This document shows, in pieces, positions 2,196-38,041 of a stretch of DNA of 39,356 bases. The translations under genes and the position numbers were made by a program. A model generated the notes under the pieces. That model saw only the letters and a list, made by a program, of their open reading frames with translations. It did no database searches and had not been told where the DNA came from. Each line of letters opens with the position of its first letter. Positions within the stretch are counted from its first letter, which is position 1. This stretch comes from a virus (lineage: Duplodnaviria > Heunggongvirae > Uroviricota > Caudoviricetes), in IMG/VR virus record IMGVR_UViG_2671180568_000005; one strand, written 5' to 3'.

Positions 2196-2717
2196 ATGCG
2201 GGACTTCATTGCCGATAAAGAGTTATCTGACCACCAACCACTTCAGGAAAGTGACGCACTCAGCGGATCCATTGATGCCGCCAACGACGACGAGCACGAA
2301 GAAAACAAGAAAAAGCGTTCCTACAAAAAAGGAGCGACTTTGCGGCTGGATGGTCCGATCGCCGGGCTTTGCTCTCTGGAAAAAGGCGCGGCATATATTG
2401 GGCTAACAAAATCTGCACTGCGCGTAGCCATTCATCGCGGTCAAATGCCGGGACACAAAACACGCACAAACCCGGAAGATGAAAACTCAGACGGAGTATG
2501 GTGGTTTAACGCCAAAGAGTGGGACAAGTTGGCTGATGAGCTACCAGAGCACGAGCCCCCAGAATGGCACAACTGGAAAAGTTACTGGACGTATGACCGC
2601 CAGAAAAGGAAGTTCTCTCCAGCTAATAAAGAAGACTGCCAGACCATTAACGGTAAGCGAGTTTATACAGGCAGAAGCTCAAAACTGGACCAACTCAGAA
2701 ACAACAGAGGCAACTAA
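2196..2717 (+). CDS. Cox/Apl-like excisionase or early regulator (first gene of the early operon), longer than P2 Cox
   Basis: Position; HTH-like segment AAYIGLTKSALRVAIHRGQMP followed by an aromatic WWF motif as in Cox; AGAGGA ribosome-binding site upstream. Confidence 0.5.
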   Translation: MRDFIADKELSDHQPLQESDALSGSIDAANDDEHEENKKKRSYKKGATLRLDGPIAGLCSLEKGAAYIGLTKSALRVAIHRGQMPGHKTRTNPEDENSDGVWWFNAKEWDKLADELPEHEPPEWHNWKSYWTYDRQKRKFSPANKEDCQTINGKRVYTGRSSKLDQLRNNRGN

Positions 2718-2721
2718 TCGT

Positions 2722-3144
2722 ATGAAAACAAACACGTCAGATTTCACAATAACTATTTCAAAAAATGACCAAGCATTAATTGATAACCTGAAATACCTTG
2801 CGGAAAAACATAATAACGGACGAATTGCAATTAATTTACGACACATCACAGGAGTAACAATTGTAACCAGTTACTGGCATCTATATCTAATCGCTAAATC
2901 AGTACTTGAAAACAAAGATTCTGTTGTCAATGGAAGAGATATAGATACTCTTCCTGCACAAATCAAACCGATAGCCTATCAATTGCGTAATCGTTTTAAA
3001 AATGAAGGTGGGATTATATTTGACTTTCCCGCAGCTGTAGCCGTGAGCTTCTCTCGGGGGGATATACTTCACTCATTTCGTTTTGCTCTATCAGGTGACG
3101 AGACATTATGGCAGCTAGAAGATGCCGGGAGCAGCCCGGCATAA
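2722..3144 (+). CDS. Hypothetical protein in AT-rich island
   Basis: ORF of 140 aa starting MKTNTSDFTITISKNDQ; local GC is clearly lower than the flanks; no recognisable motif. Confidence 0.5.
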   Translation: MKTNTSDFTITISKNDQALIDNLKYLAEKHNNGRIAINLRHITGVTIVTSYWHLYLIAKSVLENKDSVVNGRDIDTLPAQIKPIAYQLRNRFKNEGGIIFDFPAAVAVSFSRGDILHSFRFALSGDETLWQLEDAGSSPA

Positions 3145-3150
3145 ATCAAA

Positions 3151-3342
3151 TTAAAAATCAACCAGTTGTGTGACAGGTGGGTATTTACGCTGAATTTTGT
3201 CAGTTACTAACGCCAGTAATATATGAATCTCTGTGTTTAATGCGTCTTTATCACCCGTCGTTTTTACCCTGGGAGGGTTAATGTTATCCAGAGCAGCACT
3301 AAGTTCACTCAACAAATTAACAACTTTTTTATCTTCTGACAT
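3151..3342 (-). CDS. Hypothetical small protein (63 aa), convergent with the 2722-3144 gene
   Basis: ORF in the same AT-rich island, 6 bp from the stop of the convergent partner. Confidence 0.4.
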   Translation of the reverse strand: MSEDKKVVNLLSELSAALDNINPPRVKTTGDKDALNTEIHILLALVTDKIQRKYPPVTQLVDF

Positions 3343-3479
3343 GAAAACCTCTTAACAATTTAATTAAACATAAGCCAGGACCTGAACCGGCCAGTCCAAG
3401 TCCTAGACACACAAAAAAAATACCACAAATCAATACAAGGTGACACGAGTACACCTTACCGAAGGTACAGAGTTTTAAT

Positions 3480-3830
3480 ATGAAACTACAGCGCAATTCT
3501 TCACAGCAGCGCTTCCGCAACGGTGCGGAACGCCATGCTAACCGTTTCGCTACCAGTGCATCACGTAGCAACTCTCGCTACAGCCTGAGCGAAACACACG
3601 CAACGCCGGATGGCTACCCAGTAAAACAAATTGGTGAACACACTTGGCTGATTGAAAAAGCAGGAATCGTGGTTCACAGATGCCAGCGCAACCCATTTAC
3701 CGGAAACCGCATTTTTGCACTGAGCAACGGCGACAATCAGTTCGGGCAGGATTTCACATTATACGAAGCACTTCGCACGGTTGATCGTCTGCTTCACGGG
3801 CAAAGTTTTATTAAACAGGCTGATTTATAA
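3480..3830 (+). CDS. Hypothetical early-region protein
   Basis: ORF of 116 aa, co-directional with the early operon. Confidence 0.5.
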   Translation: MKLQRNSSQQRFRNGAERHANRFATSASRSNSRYSLSETHATPDGYPVKQIGEHTWLIEKAGIVVHRCQRNPFTGNRIFALSNGDNQFGQDFTLYEALRTVDRLLHGQSFIKQADL

Positions 3831-3840
3831 CAGGTGCTTT

Positions 3841-4119
3841 ATGACCAAAGAGCATGCACAAGGTGTATTTATCCGTTTTATTGATTTTCGCGGTGAACTG
3901 TTATTACGCGCATCAGCCATTGACGGAGTTGTTCCATCCGAAAAAAATGCAGCTACTTACGTTTATCTGAACGGCACGCGCCTGACCGTAGAACTTCCGT
4001 ACCAGACTGTACACGAAATCATTAGCGAAGCGGAAAAAGCACGTAAGACTAATGGCGATGAACCCTATATCGAAATTATTTGTATGGATTCAGAAGCAGA
4101 AATTCAGAAAGCAGATTAA
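3841..4119 (+). CDS. Hypothetical early-region protein
   Basis: ORF from the internal Met MTKEHAQG; tight spacing to neighbours. Confidence 0.5.
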   Translation: MTKEHAQGVFIRFIDFRGELLLRASAIDGVVPSEKNAATYVYLNGTRLTVELPYQTVHEIISEAEKARKTNGDEPYIEIICMDSEAEIQKAD

Positions 4120-4130
4120 AGGGCGTTGCG

Positions 4131-4373
4131 ATGGGCAAAGAATATAAAACTCTCATTAACAAAGCACTTGAGCGTTTTTATTTTCGCTTAAGTGCATCAG
4201 GCGCTCATGCTGAACGTGCAGCCCGTGACTCATTGACCAGGGCAATCCGGAGTCTGTATGACGTGGCTTTTTACGCTGATGATCTGGATGCACTTAACGA
4301 ACTTTCCGAGCTGATCTGTGCCGCAGAATGCGGGGAACATATTGAACCGTATAAGCTGGGGAATATCGCATGA
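4131..4373 (+). CDS. Hypothetical early-region protein
   Basis: ORF from MGKEYKTL; its stop overlaps the next start (ATGA). Confidence 0.5.
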   Translation: MGKEYKTLINKALERFYFRLSASGAHAERAARDSLTRAIRSLYDVAFYADDLDALNELSELICAAECGEHIEPYKLGNIA

Positions 4374-4483
4374 GTATATTTATGTCATGGATTGTTCTGA
4401 TTATTTCAGTGGTCTGCGCAATTGGCATTGTGCGAATTATTCATTCAGTAAAAAAGATTGAACGTTTTTTCACTGGTGAATAA
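4370..4483 (+). CDS. Small single-pass membrane peptide (37 aa), MSIFMSWIVLIISVVCAIGIVRIIHSVKKIERFFTGE
   Basis: ATGA overlap with the upstream gene; hydrophobic core followed by a basic tail; absent from the ORF track because of its length. Confidence 0.4.
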   Translation: MSIFMSWIVLIISVVCAIGIVRIIHSVKKIERFFTGE

Positions 4484-4576
4484 CGATACAAATAAAACAT
4501 CAAATTAAATAAGAAAACGTGAAAACCATCCGTATTAACGGAGGTATTCGCACACGCAAATAACGGAGATACAAAA

Positions 4577-4987
4577 ATGCACGCAAAAGAAGAAGGTATC
4601 ATCAGAGCACTGAAAGAAATTTCAAAGACAGAAAACGAAGTAGCGAAAAAAGCCATAGCAAATAATCATATGGACGTCGCAACCCACACACTGATAGTCG
4701 CAAGAGTCACGGCAGAAGCAGCCGAAATTATCGCAAAACAGGATGCTGAACTGGCGGTTCTCAGAACACAACCAGTCACCGGACTGGATTTGTCTAACAC
4801 CGGACGCCTTATTTACACAATTGGCTCGGAGCTACAGCGATACACCATTATCGCCGGGTTACAGGATAAATACCTGATCACTCCTCACCCCATAAGGGAA
4901 TCAGAAATTCTGACAAATCTCCGCCTGATAGAGCGCTCTCAAGTCGCATTCATTGATGACGCACAGTGCACCGTATTTAACGCATAG
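4577..4987 (+). CDS. Hypothetical early-region protein
   Basis: ORF of 136 aa. Confidence 0.5.
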   Translation: MHAKEEGIIRALKEISKTENEVAKKAIANNHMDVATHTLIVARVTAEAAEIIAKQDAELAVLRTQPVTGLDLSNTGRLIYTIGSELQRYTIIAGLQDKYLITPHPIRESEILTNLRLIERSQVAFIDDAQCTVFNA

Positions 4988-5010
4988 AGTTACTGGACAA
5001 AGGGGGCGCA

Positions 5011-5214
5011 ATGGCAATTAAGCATTTTCCCGTCGTTCGCTTTACCTCCAGAGGGCGCGAATACGAGGTCGACGAACGCCTGATTACCACTATCGACAAA
5101 CATCGTTCGGAAAAGGATGCACACCACATCTACCTCACTGACGGCACTTACTTCTGCGCCACTAATGTGGCGCGGGTAAACCTTATCCGACAGGTACAGG
5201 AGCCACGCAGATGA
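5011..5214 (+). CDS. Hypothetical small protein
   Basis: ORF of 67 aa; stop overlaps the next start. Confidence 0.45.
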   Translation: MAIKHFPVVRFTSRGREYEVDERLITTIDKHRSEKDAHHIYLTDGTYFCATNVARVNLIRQVQEPRR

Positions 5215-5477
5215 CCATTCTGGACTACATCGCTACTCATCCGGGGTGTAGCGGCGGAGAGATCGCCGCAGCACTGAATACTCCAACCACAGCCATTAAT
5301 GCTGAGTTACGCCAACTTTGGCGCGGCGGCTTAGTCATCAGAACAAACCGCAGCACAGGTGGTCGCGCTCGCAAAACTGGAGGCCAGGCTTCTTACCACG
5401 TAAACCCGATGCCGTTCGGGTGTAGCAATCCACTTACTCACATGTTTAACCAGCTACTGAAGGAAGCCAGAACATGA
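5211..5477 (+). CDS. Hypothetical protein, possible winged-helix DNA-binding
   Basis: ORF of 88 aa; overlapping stop and start with both neighbours. Confidence 0.45.
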   Translation: MTILDYIATHPGCSGGEIAAALNTPTTAINAELRQLWRGGLVIRTNRSTGGRARKTGGQASYHVNPMPFGCSNPLTHMFNQLLKEART

Positions 5478-5773
5478 GCACCATCAACCACCAGAAGCTA
5501 CGCGAACTGGCATTTGCCCTGCAACGAATGGCAACGCCTCAAAAATTACTGGCATTTCGCGCAATGCTCTCGCCGTCTGCTGTGCTGGCACTGCTGAATG
5601 AGCTGGAGCACGCCAGAACCACGGCTCCTGCCATTCGCCTGACGCTCCATCATGAAATCGCTGATTTCTGCGCGACGTTGGAGGCGCCGGGCGAACCGGA
5701 AACGCCGGAAGCAATACAGCAAGAGCTGCTGCAACGCATTGACAAGGTTTTTGATTTTTTTCTGAACCAGTAA
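5474..5773 (+). CDS. Hypothetical early-region protein
   Basis: ORF of 99 aa. Confidence 0.5.
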   Translation: MSTINHQKLRELAFALQRMATPQKLLAFRAMLSPSAVLALLNELEHARTTAPAIRLTLHHEIADFCATLEAPGEPETPEAIQQELLQRIDKVFDFFLNQ

Positions 5774-6095
5774 GAAACCAGAACATGCACACACAAAAAA
5801 ACCGCTTGCCATGCCGCAATCAGTCAGGTTACATTTCCGCTGCACCTCATAAAACGGGTGCCGGGTTTCGCAGCCCGCTGACAAACGTAGCGCACAACCG
5901 CGCCAGCGGTTTTTTTGTGCGTACTGTATCGCCACGTCTTTTTCGCATCAGAATTATGGTGGGGCGTACGGGGCCGACTTCGGTCGGGCCGGGTTCTGCG
6001 TTTGCCGGTACTGCGAACCTCGTACGTCTCGCCACCCACAGTTTCGCAGCTCTGGATGGTGAGTTTTCAAAACTTACACACGTAGAGGCCACACC

Positions 6096-6326
6096 ATGGC
6101 AAACCGCAAACAGCACCGCGCTATCGCGGAGCGTCGTCACATCCAGACTGAAATCAACCGCAGACTTTCCCGCGCATCACGCGTCGCGCAAATCATGCAC
6201 ATCAATATGCTGCATGAGCGCAGCCACGCACTATCAAACATTTATTCCGCCGCTGTTTTCAGCTATCTGGCGGATGATCTGCACGAGCTTCAACAGCTCA
6301 TCCAGCAGCAAAACAAACTCCATTAA
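6096..6326 (+). CDS. Hypothetical small basic protein
   Basis: ORF of 76 aa with a weak ribosome-binding site; overlapped by an implausible 205-aa ORF in another frame. Confidence 0.3.
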   Translation: MANRKQHRAIAERRHIQTEINRRLSRASRVAQIMHINMLHERSHALSNIYSAAVFSYLADDLHELQQLIQQQNKLH

Positions 6327-6398
6327 TTCCTGTTCCGGGCCTTTCCTGCACCTTGCGGCGGGAGGCCTTCGCACATCTGTAGCAAGAGGATTGCCGCA

Positions 6399-6764
6399 AT
6401 GATTCTCGCCAACGACTTTCTTGAATACCTGCTCAACACAGAACGTGATCTTGCCGCTCGCGTGCGTGATCGTTATGACATGTACCTGAAATCCCTGCCT
6501 GTACCGCAGCTCGCTGACGGAAAAATTGTTATTGATGGTCGCTACATGATCGACAGCCATGAGGGAAATTACAGGCTTTACCGCATTGAAGGTGGCACCC
6601 CGTCCGTTATTGGCATTTACCAGCACCCATCCTCTGCAATCGTCGATGTGATTGCCGACAGCATCCGCATCACACATCGCCATGCCGACACAGAAGACAC
6701 CGTGCTGGAAATTCAGCGGCTGGCTACAGTCTGCCGCGACACCCTGAATGGCATGACGAAGTAA
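6399..6764 (+). CDS. Hypothetical protein immediately upstream of the replicase
   Basis: ORF of 121 aa. Confidence 0.5.
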   Translation: MILANDFLEYLLNTERDLAARVRDRYDMYLKSLPVPQLADGKIVIDGRYMIDSHEGNYRLYRIEGGTPSVIGIYQHPSSAIVDVIADSIRITHRHADTEDTVLEIQRLATVCRDTLNGMTK

Positions 6765-6770
6765 ATCACT

Positions 6771-9593
6771 ATGACGGCAGAGTACATCAGGGACTGGCAG
6801 CAACCGCGCCACGCAGTGGGGCGTGAAGGAACGGGGATCCCCGCTCCTGAATCCGCGCTTTCCTCCTGGCTGGATGCCTACCGGGCAGAGAACGAGCGCT
6901 GCCAGGAAATGGCTGATGCGGCGTTCTCCGCCACACCGCTGGGCAACCTGATTAATAAAAGCCTGGACGCACAGGAAAAACAGGACAAAACCATCACACT
7001 GGCAGGAGACGCCAGAAAACGGGCACGCGGCGCGGTGGATGAAGCCATGGCCTCGCTGCGCCTGCTGCCGTCCTATCTGCGCGATCCGCTTATTCGCCAC
7101 CTCTCCTTCCTGCGCAAAAAACAGGAAGCCGATCGCCGGAAAGGCAAAAAGAGCTGGCAGGCGGAACGCTATGCACGCGGAACCCTGCGCAAAATATTCG
7201 AACGTCTGGATCGCACTGACAGACGCTGGCTGACACCGGGTTATCGCTCCCTTGTCGGACGCGAACGCCTGGACGATTTGCTTTACCTGCCGCAGCTCAA
7301 CAAACACCAGATACAGACGCTGGCCACCATGACGGCGGCGATGTTCAGCAGCACCTTCGAAAAACTCTGCGATGGCTTTGGCGCGACTGATGGCGAACTG
7401 ACCATGGATGTAACGCTGAAGGCGTATCAGATGCTGGCCCGCATGGCGTTACACCTGCACGCCATGCCTCCACATTATGACGCACTGACAACAGACAAAG
7501 ACCGGAGGAACGAACCGGACACGGAGCTGCTGCCGGGCGCAATCCTCCGCCTGACCTGTGCGGAATGGTGGAAACGCAAACTGTGGCTGTTACGTTGCGA
7601 GTGGAGAGAAGAACAACTCCGCGCCGCCTGTCTGGTTTCCAGAAAAACATCGCCCTATCTGAGCCAGGGCGCGTTAAGCGAGTTTCGCGCACAGCGCGAG
7701 AAAACACGCGATTTCCTGAAAAGTTTCATGCTGGAAAACGAAGACGGGTTCACGATTGATCTCGAGACAGTGTATTACGCGGGAGTAAGTAACCCGGTTC
7801 ACCGTAAGGCAGAAATGATGGCCACCATGAAGGGGCTGGAACTTCTGGCCGAAGCCCGTGGCGACAAAGCGGTGTTTCTGACTGTCACCTGCCCGTCAAA
7901 ATACCACGCCACAACAGAGAACGGTCATCCGAATCCCAAATGGAACGGGGCCACCATGCGCGACTCCAGCGATTACCTGGTTAACACGTTTTTTGCAGCG
8001 GTCCGCAAAAAACTGAACCGCGACGGCCTGCGCTGGTATGGCATCCGCACGGTGGAGCCTCACCATGACGGCACCGTGCACTGGCATATGATGGTCTTTG
8101 CTCATCCGGAAGAAATCGACACCATTGTGTCCCACACCCGCGATATTGCCATTCAGGAAGACCGCCACGAGCTGGGCAATGATATTACTCCGCGCTTTAA
8201 GGTGGAGTATGTCGACGGCTCAAAAGGCACACCAACCAGCTACATCGCCACCTACATCGGAAAGAACCTGGACAGCCGCGCCGTGGATGGCATCGACCCG
8301 AAAACGGGCAAGCCACGCGTTGACCACGAAACCGGAAAATCAATGGCCGAGAGCGTGGAGCGTGCCATCGGCTGGGCGCGCCTTCACCGGGTCCGCCAGT
8401 TCCAGTTCTTTGGTATCCCCTCCCGTCAGGTGTGGCGTGAACTGCGTCGCCTTGCCAGCCAGATGGCACGCAACCCGGAAGGACCGCAACGGCTGAAGGA
8501 TGACGCAATGGACGCGGTTCTTGCTGCCGCTGATGCCGGATGTTTTGCCACCTACATAGAGAAACAGGGCGGCGTACTTGTTCCACGCAAAGACTACCTG
8601 ATTCGCACCGCCTACGACCTCGCAGATGAGCTGAACGATTACGGCGAACAGAGCGTACAGATTTACGGGATCTGGTCGCCGCTCATTGGGGTATCTTCCC
8701 GCGTATGCACGCATCCGGATAACTGGAAGCTGGTAAGACGCAAACCGGAAGCGGAAGACAGCGCCCGCGAAAATGGTTTTGACCTTCAGGGCGGCCCTGC
8801 CGCCCCTTGGACTCGTGGCAATAACTGTCCCCGTGTACAGGAAACGGACAACAACGGGACAGAACAGCCGGAAGAACGGCCAGCACCGTGGCCGCAGCTC
8901 CCTGACGGCGTTGAAGTGAACGAATGGATGCGCTCACTGAAACGGCACGAACGCCGGGCGCTGATGCGTTCGCTTCGTGACAAACAGGCAAAAAACAGCA
9001 GTGATGAAATGCAGAGCTGGACACAGAGCCGCAAACAGCAGCGGCCTTTGCCTGATAACCACGAATTACTCGCTAAAGAATGGCGGGAGTCTGCCGAATC
9101 TCTCGGCCTGCATATCGGTGAACAGCAGATGCAGCACCTGTTACGGGGCGGCAGTCTGTACGTTGACGGCAGCATCATTGCACCGCAGGGATTTGAAATT
9201 GTACGCAAACCGGATACCCGACCGGACAGCCGGATCACGCAGCTCTGGCAGCGCCTGAGCCGTAACCACGGCGTAAGCAGCACGGAGATCCGCCATAACC
9301 CGGTCGCCAGCTATCTGGAACAGCTGGGGGCATCAGACCCCGAAGCCGCCGCACGCCTGGCATCCACACTTCAGCAAGACCAGAACACCATGAAAACACC
9401 CGTTACCGTGCTTTCTGACATGCTGCGCGCCATCCGCGACGCAGAGCACGCACAGAGAATCAGTGAAACCACTGAACGCGCCCGCCGCAAAGCAGACCTG
9501 CTGCGAGGTGGCCTGACCAGTGGAAACAAAAAACAGACAGAAACGGGATTCACAAATCCCGTAAATGAGCAAAAAACGCGCCGCGATATATGA
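6771..9593 (+). CDS. A: Rolling-circle replication initiator (P2 gpA-like HUH endonuclease), 940 aa
   Basis: HUH motif TVHWHMMVF and catalytic tyrosine pair SYIATYIGK; position after the early genes. Confidence 0.85.
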   Translation: MTAEYIRDWQQPRHAVGREGTGIPAPESALSSWLDAYRAENERCQEMADAAFSATPLGNLINKSLDAQEKQDKTITLAGDARKRARGAVDEAMASLRLLPSYLRDPLIRHLSFLRKKQEADRRKGKKSWQAERYARGTLRKIFERLDRTDRRWLTPGYRSLVGRERLDDLLYLPQLNKHQIQTLATMTAAMFSSTFEKLCDGFGATDGELTMDVTLKAYQMLARMALHLHAMPPHYDALTTDKDRRNEPDTELLPGAILRLTCAEWWKRKLWLLRCEWREEQLRAACLVSRKTSPYLSQGALSEFRAQREKTRDFLKSFMLENEDGFTIDLETVYYAGVSNPVHRKAEMMATMKGLELLAEARGDKAVFLTVTCPSKYHATTENGHPNPKWNGATMRDSSDYLVNTFFAAVRKKLNRDGLRWYGIRTVEPHHDGTVHWHMMVFAHPEEIDTIVSHTRDIAIQEDRHELGNDITPRFKVEYVDGSKGTPTSYIATYIGKNLDSRAVDGIDPKTGKPRVDHETGKSMAESVERAIGWARLHRVRQFQFFGIPSRQVWRELRRLASQMARNPEGPQRLKDDAMDAVLAAADAGCFATYIEKQGGVLVPRKDYLIRTAYDLADELNDYGEQSVQIYGIWSPLIGVSSRVCTHPDNWKLVRRKPEAEDSARENGFDLQGGPAAPWTRGNNCPRVQETDNNGTEQPEERPAPWPQLPDGVEVNEWMRSLKRHERRALMRSLRDKQAKNSSDEMQSWTQSRKQQRPLPDNHELLAKEWRESAESLGLHIGEQQMQHLLRGGSLYVDGSIIAPQGFEIVRKPDTRPDSRITQLWQRLSRNHGVSSTEIRHNPVASYLEQLGASDPEAAARLASTLQQDQNTMKTPVTVLSDMLRAIRDAEHAQRISETTERARRKADLLRGGLTSGNKKQTETGFTNPVNEQKTRRDI

Positions 9594-9645
9594 AGCGCGC
9601 ATAAAACAGGCAAAAACGGGATTTCAGAATCCCGTAAACGATTAA
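9533..9645. repeat. Two copies of a ~40-bp unit containing the palindrome aaacgggatt-N5-aatcccgtaaa (9541-9565, 9615-9639): candidate parC-like centromere or operator
   Basis: Read directly; located immediately upstream of the ParM-like gene; the first copy lies within the 3' end of the A coding sequence. Confidence 0.5.
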
Positions 9646-9669
9646 TTAATCAACATAAGGAAAAGCGAC

Positions 9670-10629
9670 ATGAAAATTTGTATCGATGACGGCTCCACCA
9701 ACATCAAGCTGGCATGGACTGAGAACGGCGAACGCCGCAACGCCATCAGCCCGAACAGCTTCAAGTCGGAATGGTCTGCGCCGTTCGGTGGCACGCAGCC
9801 CGCGAACTACATGCTTGATGGCGTGCGCTATGGTTTTGATCCGGTCAGCGATCGCTTTGTCCAGACGACTGACACGCAATACCAGTACAGCGATGTGAAT
9901 GTCATTGCCATTCATCACGCGCTGGTCAAATCAGGCATCACGCCACAGGAGGTGGATGTGGTTGTCACCCTGCCACTGAGCGAGTATTTCGACACAAACG
10001 CACAGCCGGACATAGCCAACATCAACCGCAAAAAAGCGAACGTTATGCGCCCGGTGGAGTACCAGAACGGCGAAGCATTCACTATCCGTAACGTACGGGT
10101 TATGCCTGAATCCATTCCGGCTGGCTTTAAGGCACTGGCTGACATGAGTCCGTTTGAATCCCTGCTGATTGTGGATTTAGGCGGAACCACGCTGGATGTG
10201 GCAAAGGTTCAGGGACAACTGGCAGGTATCAGCCAGGTGTTTTGCGATCCACACGTAGGCGTTTCCCTGATGGCCGATGCCGTACTGTCGGTGATGGCCA
10301 CTAACGGTATGCGTACCAGTCACCACATCGCCAATACCATTATCGAACATCGCCATGATGAAGCCTGGCTGCGCCAGCACATCCACAATGACGCGCATTA
10401 CGCCAGCCTGATGGCGGTTATTCGTGAAAAGGAAGAAACACTGAAACAACGCGTGATCCGCGCGCTGGCGGGTTTTTCGGGTTACGGGCGGGTGATGGTT
10501 GTCGGTGGCGGGGCAGAGATTGTGGCACCCGCTATCCGCGAAGCCTGCGGAGTTAATGCGACTTTCATCGCGGACGGGGTGCCACAGTTTGCTCTGGTTA
10601 ATGGGCTGTACGCAATGGGCAAGGAGTAA
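9670..10629 (+). CDS. parM: ParM/StbA-family actin-like segregation ATPase
   Basis: N-terminus MKICIDDGSTNIKLAW...ISPNSF...YSDVNVIAIHHAL matches the ParM phosphate-1 and adjacent motifs; DLGGTTLDV phosphate-2-like motif. Confidence 0.8.
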   Translation: MKICIDDGSTNIKLAWTENGERRNAISPNSFKSEWSAPFGGTQPANYMLDGVRYGFDPVSDRFVQTTDTQYQYSDVNVIAIHHALVKSGITPQEVDVVVTLPLSEYFDTNAQPDIANINRKKANVMRPVEYQNGEAFTIRNVRVMPESIPAGFKALADMSPFESLLIVDLGGTTLDVAKVQGQLAGISQVFCDPHVGVSLMADAVLSVMATNGMRTSHHIANTIIEHRHDEAWLRQHIHNDAHYASLMAVIREKEETLKQRVIRALAGFSGYGRVMVVGGGAEIVAPAIREACGVNATFIADGVPQFALVNGLYAMGKE

Positions 10630-10633
10630 ACCA

Positions 10634-10945
10634 ATGACGACACCAACCAGACGGATAAGTTTCTATCTGAAGCCCGCCGCCGTCAAGAACGAAGGCGAAG
10701 CATGCGCCTGGCTGGACAGCCTTACACCAGAAGCCCGCAAAAGTGGTCAACGCGTGGCTTTTCTGGCCGGGCTGGCACTACTGAAAATGAATCCGGCAGA
10801 GGCTTACCGACTGGCTGCATGGGCTGATGATGAGGCGTTATCAATGACACAAACCAGGACAGAACGCCCCGCGTCACAGCCAGTATCAGCCGCACAGATA
10901 ACCAGTCAGATGGCCGGAAATATCCGGGCGTTATTTCCCGAATAA
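10634..10945 (+). CDS. parR: ParR/StbB-like centromere-binding adaptor
   Basis: RRISFYLKPAAV...LDSLTPEARKSGQRVAFLAGLALL...IRALFPE parallels R1 ParR (ribbon-helix-helix N-terminus, conserved C-terminal tail); AAGGAG ribosome-binding site; 4 bp after the parM stop. Confidence 0.7.
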   Translation: MTTPTRRISFYLKPAAVKNEGEACAWLDSLTPEARKSGQRVAFLAGLALLKMNPAEAYRLAAWADDEALSMTQTRTERPASQPVSAAQITSQMAGNIRALFPE

Positions 10946-10951
10946 CACAAC

Positions 10952-10977
10952 ATCAGGGCGCATCCGCCCTGATGACT
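10952..10977. promoter_or_regulatory. Perfect 10-bp-stem inverted repeat catcagggcg-catc-cgccctgatg between parR and the next cassette
   Basis: Read directly; no T-run follows, so it may be an operator or a terminator. Confidence 0.4.
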
Positions 10978-11008
10978 TTAACCCGGGAGCATAAACAAGG
11001 GGGACACA

Positions 11009-11341
11009 ATGCAACACATTGACAGAGAAAAAGCGCAGCGACTGATTGAGCGGATGGAAGCGCTGGCGAAAGAAGAAAATGTCAACATCCAAAAAATAGC
11101 TGAATGTGGCCAGATAGTTCTTCGTCGTGAAAAAGACCTCAAACAACTGATGTCTGGCGAAACCAGCAAAACATGGACTTCAGGCAAGGAGACGGTTTAT
11201 TGCAGCTTCTGCAATAAATCCCAGTACGAAGTCACAAAGGTGATTGCCGGACCGTCTGTTTACATCTGCAATGAGTGCGTGGATTTGTGCAATGAAATTA
11301 TCAGGAAAGAAGTGACAGACAAAAAGGAAAAAAACGCATGA
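11009..11341 (+). CDS. Small protein with a ClpX-type C4 zinc-binding domain
   Basis: C-terminal [39 protein letters not shown] is nearly identical in pattern to the E. coli ClpX N-terminal zinc-binding domain ([37 protein letters not shown]); no AAA+ module follows. Confidence 0.75.
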
Positions 11342-11652
11342 ACAGAAAACAGAAACAAGAGTTGAAATACTTCTTACGTAAAGAAATTGCCAGGCTTGAA
11401 GATGCAGAGTCACAATCATCAGAAATTCCGTTCGGAATGGATATCAACGACGCCCGTATGCTCCAGGCATACCGCATAGCTCAGGCTGCACTACAGGCAA
11501 AACCGTCAGATGGACTGGTTAGAGCGGTGCGTTTCTATGAACAGGTAAAGCGTGAGAATCCGCCAGTCGAAACCGGAGCATGGAAAGACGCTGTTGACTG
11601 GGTGCTCAAAGAGGCTTGCCAGTCTGTAAACATTGGCATCAAAGGAGAGTGA
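11338..11652 (+). CDS. Hypothetical protein (104 aa), translationally coupled
   Basis: ATGA overlap with the upstream gene; ends ...IGIKGE. Confidence 0.5.
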
Positions 11653-11654
11653 GA

Positions 11655-12146
11655 ATGCAAATTTCACCGGTTACTCTTCGTGTTGCGAAGGCGTTTATAT
11701 CCAGACATCACCGACACAATAAACCCCCGGTGGGGCATAAATTCAGCATTGGTCTGAGAAATGATGCCGGAGAATTGATAGGTGTGGCGACAGCCGGTCG
11801 ACCTGTTGCACGACATTTGGATGATGGATTAACGCTTGAAGTAAATCGCACATGTACCACAGGAGAACGCAACGCTAACAGCGCGCTTTATGGTGCTGTC
11901 TGGCGGGCAGCAAAAGCTATGGGTTATCAACGTTGTATTACGTACACCCGGGCAGATGAATCAGGAGCATCTCTTCGCGCAGCTGGTTTTGTTCGTGTGA
12001 AAGCGCTTCCTCCAAGAAAAAGCTGGGCGGAATCAAGCGTCGCCCTGCGGAGTAAACGCGATCCAGTCGGAAACGGTGGTGTTCCTCGTGTGCTCTGGGA
12101 AATCAGGATAATGAGTACCACTGGTATTCGCATCAAAGGAGAGTGA
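11655..12146 (+). CDS. Hypothetical protein (163 aa) with an HHRH basic patch
   Basis: Start at the ATG after the repeated junction gcatcaaaggagagtga; ends ...IRIKGE like the preceding gene. Confidence 0.5.
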   Translation: MQISPVTLRVAKAFISRHHRHNKPPVGHKFSIGLRNDAGELIGVATAGRPVARHLDDGLTLEVNRTCTTGERNANSALYGAVWRAAKAMGYQRCITYTRADESGASLRAAGFVRVKALPPRKSWAESSVALRSKRDPVGNGGVPRVLWEIRIMSTTGIRIKGE

Positions 12147-12147
12147 T

Positions 12148-12411
12148 ATGGCAACTTTGACAAAAAAAGAACGGGCATGGTTGAACGAATTACAGGACGT
12201 TCTTGATCGCTGTCCATCACCGAAAAAAATTGGTTTTTACACCATTGGCGATAAAAGCATTTACCTGTATGACCTACGCCGCATGGATGAAATCATGGAG
12301 GCTCTTGATAATCGTTCGTCAATGGATTGGTGTGTTGCTGTCCATGATATGAATGCAGGGTTTGATGAAAAGATTTTGTTCCCCTCATCAGTTGAAAGCA
12401 CAGCAGGATAA
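12148..12411 (+). CDS. Hypothetical protein (87 aa)
   Basis: Follows the second copy of the 17-bp junction repeat. Confidence 0.5.
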   Translation: MATLTKKERAWLNELQDVLDRCPSPKKIGFYTIGDKSIYLYDLRRMDEIMEALDNRSSMDWCVAVHDMNAGFDEKILFPSSVESTAG

Positions 12412-12445
12412 GGACCCAGCAAATATACACAACCTATAAAACACT

Positions 12446-12468
12446 AAAGCGCCTCAGGGGCGCTTTTT
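12446..12468 (+). terminator. Rho-independent terminator aaagcgcctcaggggcgcttttt
   Basis: GC-rich hairpin followed by a T-run after the 4-gene cassette. Confidence 0.6.
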
Positions 12469-12471
12469 GTT

Positions 12472-12498
12472 TGCACAAAAGTGCACAAATTTGCACAA
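12472..12498. repeat. Three copies of TGCACAA phased at 10 bp (12472, 12482, 12492); a fourth at 12564
   Basis: Read directly; helical phasing suggests a protein-binding array. Confidence 0.5.
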
Positions 12499-12997
12499 TT
12501 TTTTTGAACGACTTTTTACCCTTCCGGCCCGCATGGCGGCTGGATCCGTCAAGGATCCGTGCGTGCACAAAAAAACGCGCTTTTTCTGCGCGCAGGTGAC
12601 GGGGGAACAGCCCGCGTTTCAGGGGGTAAATAGCATTCCCTGAACGATGTCGCAGAGACACAACAGAATGGCCATATTTCTCACGCTGAGCATGAAAAAG
12701 GCGTGAGGGCTTTTGATTTGATGGGGTGAAAGGTAAGGCCGTCAAAATCGCACTGAGGCAGCGAGAACATACAGTCAACGCGGTGGAATTGCGTAAGAGT
12801 CTGACCGTCGATGGTGGCGATAAACTGGAAGGCGTCGTGAAATTATCTGATTGATACAGGAGCTGGAGAGCCGGGGCATAAATTTTTTATGCCCCGGCGA
12901 AGCAGCAGACAAGCGAAGCGCGTCAGCGATACGGCACCTTGCCGACCATACTTCATAAGTGCAAAATACGAGCAAAGAAATCAATGGAGGCTGTCTT

Positions 12998-13522
12998 ATG
13001 GTCATTAATTACAAGCAGTTAAGAGAAAAACGGGAGCAGGTAAAGGAGAGCTTTCGCCGCAATGAAGATCTGACCCCGCTTGTACGCCTTGCCCAGGGCA
13101 TTGTTGATGCTTATGAAATCTCGCTGGAGCTGCCATCACAGACCTGGACAGATAGCGACGGTAATCGCCAGCATTACGTTTCATGCGGACTGGAAGCAGC
13201 CGAAGGATTTCGCAGAATGCCTTTATCCCAGATCCCTGCCGCTACCCCCAAAGCATGGGGCAGCAATGATGAGCGAAAACTGACTTTTAGTATTGAAACG
13301 GTGGTTGACGACACACCTGGCGAAGTCGCGTTCGTACACACTCCTGTTTCGATCGCAATGTATAACGATGAAATACAGGTTCGCGTTAATAATAATATCG
13401 TGCCACTTAAAGAAGGTAATTCACCCTACACCACCGTTTGTGAAGCCATTCAATATTACGTTCTCTCTGAAATTGATAATCTCAAGCCTGACGGCACCCA
13501 GAAAATGGTTCAACTCTGGTAA
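12998..13522 (+). CDS. Hypothetical protein (174 aa) between the structured noncoding region and the portal gene
   Basis: GGAGG 7 nt upstream of the ATG; followed by a bidirectional terminator. Confidence 0.5.
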   Translation: MVINYKQLREKREQVKESFRRNEDLTPLVRLAQGIVDAYEISLELPSQTWTDSDGNRQHYVSCGLEAAEGFRRMPLSQIPAATPKAWGSNDERKLTFSIETVVDDTPGEVAFVHTPVSIAMYNDEIQVRVNNNIVPLKEGNSPYTTVCEAIQYYVLSEIDNLKPDGTQKMVQLW

Positions 13523-21150: not shown

Positions 21151-21292
21151 CCCACCCACATGGGGAAACCTCGGAATATGGGGCGACCGCCTTCTGGATG
21201 CACTGGAAACCTGTAACGCGGATAAACGGGCCATTGCTGAACTGGATAAGAGAATAGCCGAACCGACACACCAGACGGGAGTAACACAATGA
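21011..21292 (+). CDS. Rz1-like outer-membrane lipoprotein spanin, overlapping the Rz gene out of frame
   Basis: Signal peptide with lipobox LLTGC and a proline-rich mature region; starts inside the Rz reading frame. Confidence 0.65.
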   Translation: MNAPTLCLTLVLLTGCAGTQNEPGPAPSVRLIPQTLTMPVTPPPFPDPPTWGNLGIWGDRLLDALETCNADKRAIAELDKRIAEPTHQTGVTQ

Positions 21293-23169
21293 CCAGTAAG
21301 AACTTTGCACTGATTACAGCCATGACACAGGCTGAACTGACTCAAAAGGTGAATGAACATCTTGCGAAAGGGTGGCATCTTCAGGGGGAGACGCGGGTTG
21401 CCTACGAACCCGGCACCCCGTGGTATCTAATGCAGGCAATGGTGGCCGATGGCACTACAGACATCTCACCTGATTCCCCCCAGCACGGCAGCGTGCCGGA
21501 GTGGTATTACGTGGTGGTACTTGCTGGTCAATCCAATGCCATGTCATATGGTGATGGAATGCCGCTGCCGGATTCTTACGATGCGCCCCACCCACGCATT
21601 AAGCAACTGGCCCGTCGCAACACAGTGACTCCCGGTGGTAAAGCATGCGCATTTAACGACATCATTCCGGCAGACCACTGCCTGCATGATGTTCAGGATA
21701 TGAGCGCACTGAATCATCCGAAGGCAGACCTGAGCAAAGGGCAGTACGGCTGTGTCGGCCAGGGCTTACATATTGCCAAAAAACTGCTCCCGTATATCCC
21801 GAATAACGCGGGGATCCTGCTGGTACCATGCTGCCGTGGTGGTTCGGCATTCACTCAGGGCGCGGAGGGAACATTCAGTACGACCACGGGGGCCAGCCAG
21901 GATTCGGCGCGCTGGGGTGTGGGTAAACCGTTATATCAGGACCTGATTGCGCGCACTAAAGCTGCATTACAGAAGAACCCGAAAAATGTGTTGCTGGCGG
22001 TGTGCTGGATGCAGGGCGAATTTGACATGAGCGCTGCCACCTACGCACAGCAACCGGACCTGTTCACGGCCATGCTGAAGCAGTTCCGTACTGACCTTTC
22101 CGGATTTAACGCGCAGTGCCATGGCGGCAGTGCTGCAGTTGTACCGTGGATTTGTGGCGACACGACGTATTACTGGAAAAACACATACGGCACACAGTAT
22201 GACTCCGTCTACGGCGCGTACAAAAACAGGGAGAGCGACAACGTTTTCTTTGTGCCGTTCATGACCGACGGTAACGGCAACAACACACCCACCAACTTAC
22301 CGGCAGAAGACCCGGATATTGCTGATGCAGGTTATTACGGCGCGCAATCCCGTAGTAATGGTAATTGGGTATCGTCAAATCGTCCGACACATTTCAGTTC
22401 ATGGGCGCGCAGGGGCATTATTTCGGATCGCCTGGCAACCGCTATTCTGAACGCAGTTGGTCGAACCAGCGCCTTCATCAGCGGTACCGCACCGGAGATT
22501 AAACCCTCNNNNNNNNNNNNNNNNNNNNNNNNNNNNNNNNNNNNNNNNNNNNNNNNNNNNNNNNNNNNNNNNNNNNNNNNNNNNNNNNNNNNNNNNNNNN
22601 NNNNNNNNNNNNNNNNNNNNNNNNNNNNNNNNNNNNNNNNNNNNNNNNNNNNNNNNNNNNNNNNNNNNNNNNNNNNNNNNNNNNNNNNNNNNNNNNNNNN
22701 NNNNNNNNNNNNNNNNNNNNNNNNNNNNNNNNNNNNNNNNNNNNNNNNNNNNNNNNNNNNNNNNNNNNNNNNNNNNNNNNNNNNNNNNNNNNNNNNNNNN
22801 NNNNNNNNNNNNNNNNNNNNNNNNNNNNNNNNNNNNNNNNNNNNNNNNNNNNNNNNNNNNNNNNNNNNNNNNNNNNNNNNNNNNNNNNNNNNNNNNNNNN
22901 NNNNNNNNNNNNNNNNNNNNNNNNNNNNNNNNNNNNNNNNNNNNNNNNNNNNNNNNNNNNNNNNNNNNNNNNNNNNNNNNNNNNNNNNNNNNNNNNNNNN
23001 CACGGTTACTCCGAAACTGAATGGAGTGGCTGGCCCGGCATTCCAGGTCATAAAAGACAGTCTGACACTGGGGCTGAATGCGCTGACGTTAACTGATATC
23101 ACTAAAAATGCCGCGTACGGCGTCGATATCGGCAGCCTGGTGCTGGAAATCAATAATCCCGCAGTATAA
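21289..23169 (+). CDS. NanS-p-like sialate O-acetylesterase (DUF1737-like N-domain plus SASA/SGNH domain); interior replaced by a 492-N gap
   Basis: N-terminus ITAMTQAELTQKVNEHLAKGWHLQGE and esterase block VVVLAGQSNAMSYGDG (GQSN motif); residues encoded by 22509-23000 are unknown. Confidence 0.65.
   Translation: MTSKNFALITAMTQAELTQKVNEHLAKGWHLQGETRVAYEPGTPWYLMQAMVADGTTDISPDSPQHGSVPEWYYVVVLAGQSNAMSYGDGMPLPDSYDAPHPRIKQLARRNTVTPGGKACAFNDIIPADHCLHDVQDMSALNHPKADLSKGQYGCVGQGLHIAKKLLPYIPNNAGILLVPCCRGGSAFTQGAEGTFSTTTGASQDSARWGVGKPLYQDLIARTKAALQKNPKNVLLAVCWMQGEFDMSAATYAQQPDLFTAMLKQFRTDLSGFNAQCHGGSAAVVPWICGDTTYYWKNTYGTQYDSVYGAYKNRESDNVFFVPFMTDGNGNNTPTNLPAEDPDIADAGYYGAQSRSNGNWVSSNRPTHFSSWARRGIISDRLATAILNAVGRTSAFISGTAPEIKPXXXXXXXXXXXXXXXXXXXXXXXXXXXXXXXXXXXXXXXXXXXXXXXXXXXXXXXXXXXXXXXXXXXXXXXXXXXXXXXXXXXXXXXXXXXXXXXXXXXXXXXXXXXXXXXXXXXXXXXXXXXXXXXXXXXXXXXXXXXXXXXXXXXXXXXXXXXXXXXXXXXXXTVTPKLNGVAGPAFQVIKDSLTLGLNALTLTDITKNAAYGVDIGSLVLEINNPAV
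22509..23000. other. Gap (492 N) inside the esterase gene
   Basis: Run of n characters. Confidence 0.99.
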
Positions 23170-26113: not shown

Positions 26114-26714
26114 TTCGTTGTTACCACCATCAGCCAGCAATTTCATGCGTTGTGCCGAAGCCGTCGGAACACGCATTACAGACATTCCGGTAGACCTCAA
26201 CACGCTGTGGTCGCCGGACACCTGCCCGGTGCATCTGCTGCCTTATCTCGCCTGGGCGTTTTCCGTTGACCGCTGGGATCGCAACTGGCCGGAAGAGACA
26301 AAGCGACAGGTGATTCGTGATGCATGGCTGATACACCGACACAAAGGGACCATCAGCGCACTGCGAAGAGCCGTGGAGCCTCTCGGCTACCTGATTGAAG
26401 TAAAGGAGTGGTGGCAACTCAACGAGGAGCCGGGAACATTTCGCATTGTTGTCGGAGTACTTGATCAGGGCATCACCGATGAAATGTATCAGGAACTTGA
26501 GCGCCTTATTGCGGATGCAAAACCAGTAAGTCGCCATCTGACGGGGCTGGCGATCAGCCTGAGTGTGAACGGAAAGATTTTCGTTGGTACGGGATGCTAT
26601 CACGGCGATGCCCTGACGGTTTATCCCTACACCCCGGAGTCCATTATTGTCGAAGGGGATTATTTCCCTGCCCCGGCCATTCATTTAATTGATAATCTGA
26701 GAGTAAACGCATGA
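26106..26714 (+). CDS. I: Baseplate/tail protein (P2 gpI-like)
   Basis: MSNSLLPP...LWSPDTCPVHLLPYLAWAFSVDRWD parallels gpI. Confidence 0.85.
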   Translation: MSNSLLPPSASNFMRCAEAVGTRITDIPVDLNTLWSPDTCPVHLLPYLAWAFSVDRWDRNWPEETKRQVIRDAWLIHRHKGTISALRRAVEPLGYLIEVKEWWQLNEEPGTFRIVVGVLDQGITDEMYQELERLIADAKPVSRHLTGLAISLSVNGKIFVGTGCYHGDALTVYPYTPESIIVEGDYFPAPAIHLIDNLRVNA

Positions 26715-28440
26715 CAGTGAAATACTACGCCATTCTGACTAATCAGGGCGCGGCACGACTGGCTAACGCGACGATGCTCGGCAGTAAGCTGAATCTGACG
26801 CGAATGGCCGTTGGTGATGCAAATGGTGTGTTACCAACACCAGACCCTGCACAAACAAAACTGATTAACCAGAAACGCATTGCACCGCTGAATCTTCTGA
26901 GTGTTGACCCTAACAATCAGAGCCAGATTATTGCGGAGCAAATCATCCCTGAAAGCGAGGGTGGATTCTGGATCCGTGAGATTGGTCTTTATGATGATAA
27001 AGGTGTACTCATTGCGGTGGCAAACTGCCCGGAAACGTACAAACCGCAGTTGCAGGAAGGCAGTGGACGCACCCAGACTATCCGCATGATTCTGGTTGTC
27101 ACGAACACCGAAGCCATCACGCTGAAAATCGACCCGTCTGTGGTTCTGGCAACCCGCAAATATGTGGATGATAAAATATCAGAGCACGAGCAGTCACGAC
27201 GTCACCCGGACGCCTCGCTGACCGCAAAAGGCTTTGTTCAACTTAGCAGTGCCACGGACAGTCAATCAGAAACTGAGGCTGCCACGCCGAAGGCTGTGAA
27301 AATCGCGTATGATCTGGCCCGGGGAAAATACACAGCCCAGGATGCAACAACGACCCGTAAAGGGATCGTACAACTGAGCAGCGCCACCAACAGCACCTCT
27401 GAAACGCTGGCCGCCACACCAAAAGCCGTCAAGGCTGCATACGACCTTGCAGCCGGCAAGGCGCCCGTCAGCCACACTCACCCGTGGAGTCAGATAACGG
27501 GAGTGCCTGCTGCCTCGCTGACGGCAAAAGGCACCGTACAACTGAGCAGTGCCATCAACAGCACGTCTGAAATACTGGCCGCCACACCGAAAGCGGTCAA
27601 GGCTGCATACGATCTGGCAGCCGGCAAGGCGCCCGTCAGCCACACTCACCCGTGGAGTCAGATAACGGGAGTGCCTGCTGCCTCGCTGACGGCAAAAGGC
27701 ACCGTACAACTGAGCAGTGCCATCAACAGCACGTCTGAAATACTGGCCGCCACACCGAAAGCGGTCAAGGCTGCATACGATCTGGCAAACGGAAAACAAC
27801 CGGCAGATGCCACGCTCACTGCTCTGGCAGGACTTGCCACTGCAGCAGATCGGTTGCCTTATTTTACCGGAGCAGACCGCGCAGCGCTGGCAACCCTTAC
27901 AGCTATTGGTCGCGCTATTATCGCTAAGGGCAGTATAAAAGATGTCCTCAATTACCTTGGTTTNNNNNNNNNNTTGGTTTGGGGGAAGGCTCTGCATTGC
28001 CTGTTGGTGTACCGGTTCCATGGCCCACCGCCACACCGCCAGCAGGCTGGTTACAGTGCAACGGAGCTACGTTCACCAAAGAACAATATCCTGTTCTGGC
28101 CAGAGTCTACCCGACCCTCCGTCTTCCCGATTTGCGCGGTGAGTTTATCCGTGGATGGGACGGTGGTCGCAAGGTTGATACCGGGCGTGCGCTACTTTCA
28201 TTTCAGGAAGGGACTATCGTATCCGGTTTTGATGATAATGATAACGGAGATATCAGTTCGCTCGGCTCTACACAATACGGATTTGGTGACGCTTTAACCT
28301 CTAATCAACTGGGGGTCTTAAATGGCAAAAAGTGGATATTTGATGCATCCTCTAAAGGTGCACAAAGATATGACTGGTGGGCTTATGTATCAGCTCGCCC
28401 CCGCAATATCGCATTTAACTATATCGTGAGGGCGGCGTGA
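26711..28440 (+). CDS. H: Tail fibre protein (gpH-like): constant part fused to a variable tip; reading frame apparently broken by the 10-N gap
   Basis: N-terminus MTVKYYAILTNQGAARLANA; repeated fibre motif TAKGxVQLSSA...TPKAVKAAYDLA; after the gap the frame 27979..28440 continues with GEGSALPVGVPVPWPTATPPAGW and ends NYIVRAA. Confidence 0.75.
27451..27786 (+). repeat. Perfect tandem duplication of a 168-bp (56-codon) unit inside the fibre gene
   Basis: 27451-27618 repeats at 27619-27786; two older diverged copies of the motif lie upstream. Confidence 0.85.
27964..27973. other. Scaffold gap (10 N) at the constant/variable fibre junction
   Basis: Run of n characters; ttggttt is present on both sides. 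Confidence 0.99.
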
Positions 28441-38021: not shown

Positions 38022-38041
38022 AAAGCGCCCGCAGGCGCTTT
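38022..38041. repeat. Candidate attR core (identical to 585-604), forming the serS-proximal terminator hairpin
   Basis: Perfect 20-bp direct repeat, 22 bp downstream of the serS stop. Confidence 0.6.

Follow-up and report, generated by a model that had tools for sequence, protein, structure and literature searches.

A candidate type II (ParMRC) partition cassette downstream of the replicase gene in an integrated P88-like prophage of Escherichia coli

The stretch of viral DNA analysed in this study (IMG/VR record IMGVR_UViG_2671180568_000005, Caudoviricetes; 39,356 nucleotides, hereafter the window) carries, directly behind a P2-type replicase gene, two adjacent genes for a ParM-like ATPase and a ParR-like adaptor, preceded by a pair of palindromic repeats. 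We observed that a 1.6-kb query covering the 3' end of the replicase gene gpA together with parM and parR (9400-11000) is 100% identical to the chromosome of Escherichia coli PCN033, and 98.1% identical over its full length to phage P88 (Xuanwuvirus, Peduoviridae). In PCN033 the cassette lies within a P2-type prophage, the surrounding genes being annotated with the P2-type set of int, C, cox, gpA, portal, terminase, GPO scaffold, P2 capsid and tail genes. The genes follow the order int, C, cox, early genes, gpA, parM, parR and a few small genes, and then portal, terminase, capsid, lysis and tail. The element is thus an integrated P88-like prophage of the P2 family (Xuanwuvirus, Peduoviridae), with a length of 37.4 kb between its attachment (att) repeats.

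The first gene of the cassette, parM (9670-10629, plus strand), is preceded by an AAGGAA ribosome-binding site and encodes an actin-fold ATPase of 319 amino acids belonging to the R1 ParM/StbA family. In profile searches the protein matched PF06406 at 3.6e-82 (274.5 bits, cut-off 24.6) and PF21523 at 1.3e-68 (230.5 bits, cut-off 27.4), as well as phrog_691, and it aligned with the sequences of the R1 ParM structures (PDB 1mwk) at an E-value of 2.5e-93 over residues 2-317. It is 47% identical to R1-type IncF ParM and 52% identical to the ParMs of IncI, IncK and IncL/M plasmids, and in the alignment with these proteins the columns of DDGSTN (phosphate-1), PESxPAG, DxGGTTxD (DLGGTT) and GGGAE are invariant; the roles of the residues in these motifs, including the catalytic glutamate of PESxPAG, are presumably those of R1 ParM. 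More than 5000 plasmid records were found to hold ParM relatives, and since all of these stay below 60% identity, the exception being six plasmid-labelled records with the module itself (at least 95%), the phage ParM is best placed as a distinct branch of the plasmid ParM family and not as another kind of actin-like protein. The gene is full length in all 93 loci compared, and its ratio of nonsynonymous to synonymous divergence (dN/dS) ranges from 0.04 to 0.16, with 0.043 against the Hafnia version at a synonymous divergence (dS) of 0.64.

The second gene, parR (10634-10945, plus strand), starts 5 nt past the parM stop and encodes an adaptor of 103 amino acids of the R1 StbB/ParR family. A longer open reading frame (ORF) initiated by TTG at 10499 is also listed, but all annotated relatives start the gene at the ATG at 10634. 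The protein matched PF10784, the profile of the R1 StbB/ParR family, at 2.5e-24 (85.4 bits, cut-off 25) over residues 6-76, and phrog_2515 at 4.4e-58, with no sequence match in PDB. By alignment, it shares the N-terminal domain with the ParRs of R1-type, IncI, IncK and IncL/M plasmids, and its tail, ...MAGNIRALFPE, aligns with ...ETKKNAMKLIN of R1 and with ...ETRNNIKNLFPDD (...NIKNLFPDD) of IncI and IncL/M, the asparagine being invariant; in R1 the C-terminal peptide of ParR is reportedly the part that binds ParM. Among the aligned phage alleles the first 18 residues do not vary, and there is little or no variation in residues 6-14 (RRISFYLKP), in much of the N-terminal domain as far as residue 63, or in the tail N-I-x-x-x-F-P. 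Residues 65-90, with many P, Q, A and S, are hypervariable. This pattern suggests the layout expected for a ParR, in which a flexible linker joins a DNA-binding domain to a ParM-binding tail. An AlphaFold2 monomer of low confidence (mean pLDDT 55, pTM 0.30) places helices at residues 20-29, 37-52, 54-61 and 89-100 and leaves 62-88 disordered, which may be compatible with a ribbon-helix-helix fold. A preliminary description of this DNA, made from its letters and ORFs, had proposed a ParM-like ATPase and a ParR-like adaptor, and both proposals were borne out by the profile searches; the best homologues proved to be plasmid partition ParMs and not the non-partition actin-like proteins that the description had named as grounds for abandoning its view. 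As a separate observation, a 226-kb contig labelled 'Vagococcus sp. WN89Y', a Gram-positive (NZ_JBQPOM010000071.1), encodes a ParR 92% identical to this one, which is probably due to contamination or a mislabelled assembly.

Upstream of parM, we identified a 42-nt direct repeat (9527-9568 and 9600-9641) with 81% identity between the units and a start-to-start spacing of 73 nt. Each unit holds a perfect 8-N4-8 palindrome of the form ACGGGATT-N4-AATCCCGT: in unit 1 it reads ACGGGATTCACAAATCCCGT (9543-9562) and falls within the last 17 codons of gpA, while in unit 2 it reads ACGGGATTTCAGAATCCCGT (9616-9635) and ends 35 nt before the parM start. The two units of roughly 40 bp that had been described, each with a palindrome and the first overlapping the end of the replicase gene, are therefore present as described. 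The four half-sites form two pairs, and their spacing of 73 bp would correspond to about seven helical turns. The palindrome pattern occurs at these two places only in the 39 kb, even when up to three mismatches are allowed, with 0.11 matches expected. Perfect 8-N4-8 palindromes number seven in the window against 0.66 expected, four of them forming two same-arm pairs, namely this pair and the two att cores, and none of 100 first-order Markov simulations contained two perfect palindromes of the same arm. The core arms CGGGATT...AATCCC are invariant at both sites in the versions from E. coli, E. albertii, Salmonella and Hafnia, despite the parM synonymous divergence of 0.64 up to Hafnia; across these four genera, variation is found in the 4-nt spacers and in the segment around the gpA stop codon, while the A-rich flanks of the palindromes are conserved. 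Position, repetition and conservation together suggest that the palindromes are the ParR centromere, and the two repeat units are regarded here as a candidate parC.

It is also conceivable that the palindromes are not a ParR centromere but the operators of another regulator, such as the MarR-family protein encoded at 5211-5477, or antisense hairpins or terminators, or a replication control at the end of gpA, in which case ParR would bind elsewhere, for example to A-rich CAAAAAC-like motifs resembling the R1 iterons. We consider this improbable. It is favoured by the plasmid relatives of ParR, which use A/C- or T-rich direct iterons and not palindromes, by the conservation of the A-rich flanks, and by the intrinsic-terminator-like score of both palindromes on the minus strand, where a T-run follows the stem. 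However, the terminator-like score arises on the minus strand only, all genes from 2196 to 13522 lie on the plus strand and no minus-strand gene ends nearby, and the natural variants, in our reading, keep base-pairing inconsistently on either RNA strand; on these grounds the hairpin or terminator interpretation was not adopted, although it stays a minor alternative. The strong fold z-score of the palindrome region is a trivial consequence of the same palindrome being repeated. Two identical sites 73 bp apart and immediately 5' of parM also represent the standard arrangement of a type II centromere, and the invariance of the arms is matched by that of ParR residues 1-18, a stretch in which the DNA-contacting strand probably lies. 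Co-variation between ParR alleles and site variants was looked for as well, and none was seen to tie the protein to the sites, which leaves room for a different operator; the comparison is uninformative because both ParR classes pair with the same site variants.

The gpA-type replication endonuclease in front of the cassette (940 amino acids; 6771-9593, plus strand, with the TGA stop at 9591-9593; PF05840, E 1.9e-130) has an end of its own kind. Its last approximately 145 residues (about 796-940, corresponding to about 9160-9593) have no counterpart in other P2-like replicases, which align only upstream of this C-terminal part. The part was found only in P88-type phages, in 14 phage records, and parMR accompanies it in all 14; repeat unit 1 of the candidate centromere is overlapped by this extension. 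Apart from these features, a GC-rich inverted repeat, CGCGC...GCGCG, brackets the gpA stop codon at about 9576-9600; in phage 520873 it reads CGTGC...GCACG, an apparently compensatory pair, and the pairing is lost in other relatives.

With regard to expression, a sigma-70 consensus scan of 9300-11100 gave no match, and a relaxed promoter scan, with first hexamers starting at 9440-9664, returned only matches of at most 8/12 at implausible positions. A plus-strand terminator between gpA and parM was likewise not found. With neither a recognisable promoter nor a plus-strand terminator between gpA and the cassette, parMR are most likely transcribed together with gpA in the early replication operon. 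Read-through from the early lytic promoter would mean that ParM and ParR are made alongside the replicase and are silent in the repressed lysogen. Directly after parR there is a GC-rich hairpin, CATCAGGGCGCATCCGCCCTGATG (10951-10974), which marks the end of the conserved block; beyond it the gene content differs between relatives.

The adjacency of gpA, parM and parR was constant in every relative inspected, including P88, 520873, 569R5, the Hafnia contigs, E. albertii and others. The variable genes sit between parR and the portal gene, and variability sets in partly inside parR and otherwise behind it: some relatives keep 98% DNA identity up to about 10688, whereupon ParR falls to about 52% with the tail NIxxLFPE kept. 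Among 85 loci, 63 carry the ParR class seen here and 22 the other, the same palindromes occurring with both and parM remaining at 98-99% throughout. The interval behind the cassette occupies the place that tin/old has in P2, a known defence hotspot, and a role as accessory or co-opted cargo unrelated to DNA movement, for instance in defence or in incompatibility against plasmids, might be proposed from the allelic mosaicism of ParR and from the placement of the cassette between gpA and the portal gene, in the interval that holds variable genes in relatives. Such a role is scarcely probable. The position of the cassette is invariant and the cassette is present in every P88-type genome inspected, with the variable block starting only after it; parM is under strong purifying selection; PADLOC gave no match for ParM, ParR or the five downstream ORFs; and cross-incompatibility with plasmids is unlikely because the plasmids examined have iteron centromeres of unrelated sequence. 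The lack of a PADLOC match, together with an invariant position where cargo varies, led us to reject defence or cargo as the main explanation, and the cassette appears to be a selected core function of the P88-like lineage. Within the variable interval itself (11009-13522) we noticed a protein with the ClpX-type zinc finger alone (11009-11341) and an XF1762-family, Mom-like protein (11616-12146; NCBIfam 2.4e-60, with the phrog named 'Mom-like DNA modification').

The module is widely dispersed in one host species. It was detected in 1374 of 5426 complete E. coli genomes (approximately 25%), at 1543 chromosomal and two plasmid places. Among 50,697 phage records, R1-family ParM was confined to 14 P88-like records and the plasmid prophage D6, in agreement with the earlier statement that type II partition is not part of canonical P2, as the family is absent from the other P2-like phages. 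A profile scan of genome contigs with the ParR alignment returned three loci only, the loci retained from a scan of viral contigs with the ParM alignment were all 98-99% identical, and a ParR homologue search reached Escherichia, Cronobacter and Hafnia only, the relatives in Salmonella and Citrobacter coming from other searches. The family thus appears narrow, with the Hafnia version as the most divergent usable one. The 14 phage records label the module ParM or 'partition protein', sometimes 'recombinase' or 'hypothetical protein', and both proteins belong to PHROGs families named 'partition protein'. Because RefSeq, the phage P88 record and PHROGs already name ParM or partition protein, the identification at the gene level is public and not new as annotation, whereas the biology of the cassette is uncharacterised: our search of the literature on partition in P88 and Xuanwuvirus yielded annotations and the phiSM paper, in which the gene is merely listed as a putative 'fitness' factor, and no functional study.

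Comparatively, the closest known systems are parMRC (stbAB/parA) of plasmid R1 and its counterparts on IncF, IncI, IncK and IncL/M plasmids, with which the P88-type cassette shares the order centromere (in the phage, the candidate one), parM, parR, a ParM of 47-52% identity with intact motifs, and a ParR of the same Pfam family with an alignable tail. It differs from them in its location on an integrative phage of the P2 family, in the length of its ParR, which is the shortest of those compared (103 amino acids against 116-147) and lacks part of the middle region, and in its candidate centromere, which consists of two 20-bp palindromes 73 bp apart where the plasmids have about ten direct iterons of 10-11 bp and no such palindromes. 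In the R1 type, the promoter is embedded in parC and autoregulated by ParR, which is typical though not strictly defining, whereas the candidate centromere of the phage has no promoter recognisable by the consensus scans and has one of its sites inside the coding sequence of the replicase. A second comparison is offered by srpMRC of the SXT/R391 integrative and conjugative elements (ICEs), which is likewise a type II locus on a normally integrated element; it is induced only on activation and stabilises the excised form that replicates by rolling circle, and its centromere, located upstream of the ParM-like gene, has few sites, as does the candidate in the phage, being made up of four repeats, both direct and inverted (PMC4489591). 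SrpM and SrpR are, however, distant from R1 ParM and ParR, where the P88-type cassette is a close member of the R1 family, and the srpMRC function has been demonstrated on a conjugative element, where the P88-type cassette belongs to a phage and is known from sequence.

Taken together, these data point, with a probability of roughly 0.6, to a genuine ParMRC (type II) cassette as part of the conserved P88-like phage backbone, serving to partition or position extrachromosomal phage circles. In the proposed mechanism, ParR dimers would bind the two 20-bp palindromes upstream of parM, one of them in the 3' end of the replicase gene, and the conserved C-terminal tail of ParR would capture the ends of ATP-dependent ParM filaments, whose growth would push apart or position the circular extrachromosomal genomes. 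This would take place while the phage DNA exists as a replicating circle, either after infection and before integration or after excision, and not in the repressed integrated prophage. The benefit would be that unintegrated or excised circles reach both daughter cells, as was shown for srpMRC of SXT/R391. In all of this we infer the binding by ParR, the co-transcription with gpA, the filament formation and the biological benefit. As a tentative extension, an R1-type actin spindle working on a minimal two-palindrome centromere might give the phage a short, actively partitioned plasmid phase, with more lysogenisation and less loss of the element. If this were true, the 'integrative' and 'plasmid' lifestyles of prophages would be less separate than assumed, and the cassette would be a natural, reduced ParMRC, with only a few ParR dimers needed to cap ParM filaments.

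Several points weigh against this partition reading. The candidate centromere comprises two sites only, compared with the roughly ten iterons of the plasmid relatives, and many E. coli alleles carry one or two arm mismatches and are imperfect palindromes; the perfect symmetry seen here is one allele of the conserved core, in which the requirement would therefore lie. The low confidence of the ParR model makes the ribbon-helix-helix fold a tentative assignment, and the crude consensus scans are compatible with a weak or non-sigma-70 promoter of the cassette itself. In a rapid lytic cycle, moreover, inheritance at cell division is irrelevant, so that a purely segregational benefit needs a prolonged episomal phase, and such a phase in P88-like phages is an assumption.

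Monomeric circles are the packaging substrate of P2-type phages, and the cassette could instead organise lytic replication, its filaments moving or spreading replicating monomeric circles to favourable sites without serving inheritance. We regard this as unlikely, though with an appreciable chance of being correct. That the cassette immediately follows the replicase gene in the early operon, and that no promoter was found for it, implies expression during replication, and the P88-specific gpA extension that overlaps repeat unit 1 always co-occurs with parMR. A precedent is AlpAC/alpS of prophage CGP3 in Corynebacterium glutamicum, in which an integrated prophage encodes an actin-like ATPase together with a co-transcribed DNA-binding adaptor (PMC4446434, PMC5539076). 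The adaptor sites lie upstream of the operon, both proteins, AlpA and AlpC, are induced early and act on circular phage DNA, which the system connects with actin-like filaments; efficient replication of the phage DNA depends on them (PMC4446434). The reported CGP3 role is efficient replication or positioning and not inheritance, but CGP3 uses a different actin-like lineage in a Gram-positive host; the P88-type ParM, being 47-52% identical to plasmid-segregating ParMs, is apparently not of the AlpC lineage, and the only trace of homology is its weak, sub-threshold ALP_N match. Other P2-like phages also replicate efficiently without such a system. Sequence data do not separate inheritance from lytic positioning, and partition of a transient episome is favoured here in view of how closely the proteins are related to ParMs that do segregate plasmids.

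A facultative phage-plasmid, in which ParMRC would keep the prophage as a stable low-copy plasmid, for example where the bacterial attachment site (attB) is occupied or absent, can also be considered, with a slim chance of being correct. Besides the P88-like records, the only phage in the collection with an R1-family ParM (48% identical to the P88-type ParM) is Escherichia phage D6, which we take to be a P1-like episomal plasmid prophage; its record of 91 kb annotates only a StbA-type plasmid stability protein, compared with the integrative P2-like element of about 37 kb described here. In addition, the circular record NZ_CP148288.1 (34,461 bp), an E. coli plasmid according to its deposition, covers an entire P88-like genome with its integrase; it may represent a true episome, or the assembly may have captured a replicating circle after excision. 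An integrated copy in that strain was looked for, and its assembly was absent from the E. coli genome matches. On the other side, 1543 of the 1545 places in complete E. coli genomes are chromosomal, and this ratio of 1543 chromosomal to 2 plasmid places makes a stable plasmid lifestyle unlikely. A rolling-circle gpA expressed from a repressible early operon also seems ill-suited to copy-controlled maintenance under repression. A phage-plasmid such as P1, D6 or N15 persists in lysogens as an autonomous replicon, as a rule without entering the chromosome, whereas the present prophage is integrated, as are nearly all of its E. coli counterparts. In the window its boundaries are the left (attL, 585-604) and right (attR, 38022-38041) att cores, exact 20-bp direct repeats of the sequence AAAGCGCCCGCAGGCGCTTT, itself palindromic, which flank the region running from int to the late genes; the phage integrase is encoded by an ORF on the minus strand (688-1695) whose PCN033 equivalent carries that annotation. 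The earlier view that the element is integrative, based on an integrase and att repeats, agrees with these boundaries and with the chromosomal places.

Returning to the partition reading, ParMRC is a textbook machine of plasmid segregation. The presence of a close R1-family copy in the conserved backbone of an integrative phage, itself carried by about 25% of complete E. coli genomes, suggests that such phages have an actively managed extrachromosomal phase, as has been shown for SXT/R391 and CGP3. The P88-type cassette would accordingly be one more type II partition system carried by an integrative element; its candidate centromere is a minimal variant, and no promoter of its own was detected. 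The precedents of SXT/R391 and CGP3 make this unsurprising to a specialist; it is still a widespread and experimentally accessible E. coli case for which no study was found. P88 or phiSM could offer a tractable E. coli system for finding out what a virus uses an actin-like spindle for, and the two palindromes a small natural centromere for structural work on the capping of ParM by ParR. Caution is also needed in reading genome annotations, as ParM and ParR matches in E. coli assemblies are often prophage genes and not evidence of a plasmid. ParM/ParR cassettes on chromosomes have been described for the Firmicute proteins Dh-cParM1 and Cb-cParM, for which roles beyond plasmid segregation were raised and no phage context is stated (PMC12270681); the words 'phage' and 'Escherichia' are absent from the main text of that 2025 paper, and the P88-type cassette is not among the cassettes in the section consulted.

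A few further features of the window were noted. At its left end, bases 88-97 consist of N, and bases 395-481 recur exactly as bases 1-87; this is most likely an artefact of a scaffold junction in a draft assembly, and it falls in an IS200-like region to the left of the prophage. Just upstream of the replication genes, an ORF of 76 amino acids (6096-6326) matches the Pfam 'Derepression' family at 6.5e-08 and may be an induction factor of the antirepressor type. Between the lysis and tail genes, a protein of 626 amino acids (21289-23169) combines a DUF1737 with a SASA (sialate O-acetylesterase-type) domain; it had no match in PADLOC, and its gene looks like an accessory, moron-like insertion. 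Finally, the tail-fibre gene (26711-28297) contains three tandem copies of a 168-nt unit at 27359-27862, with identities of 100%, 93% and 63%.

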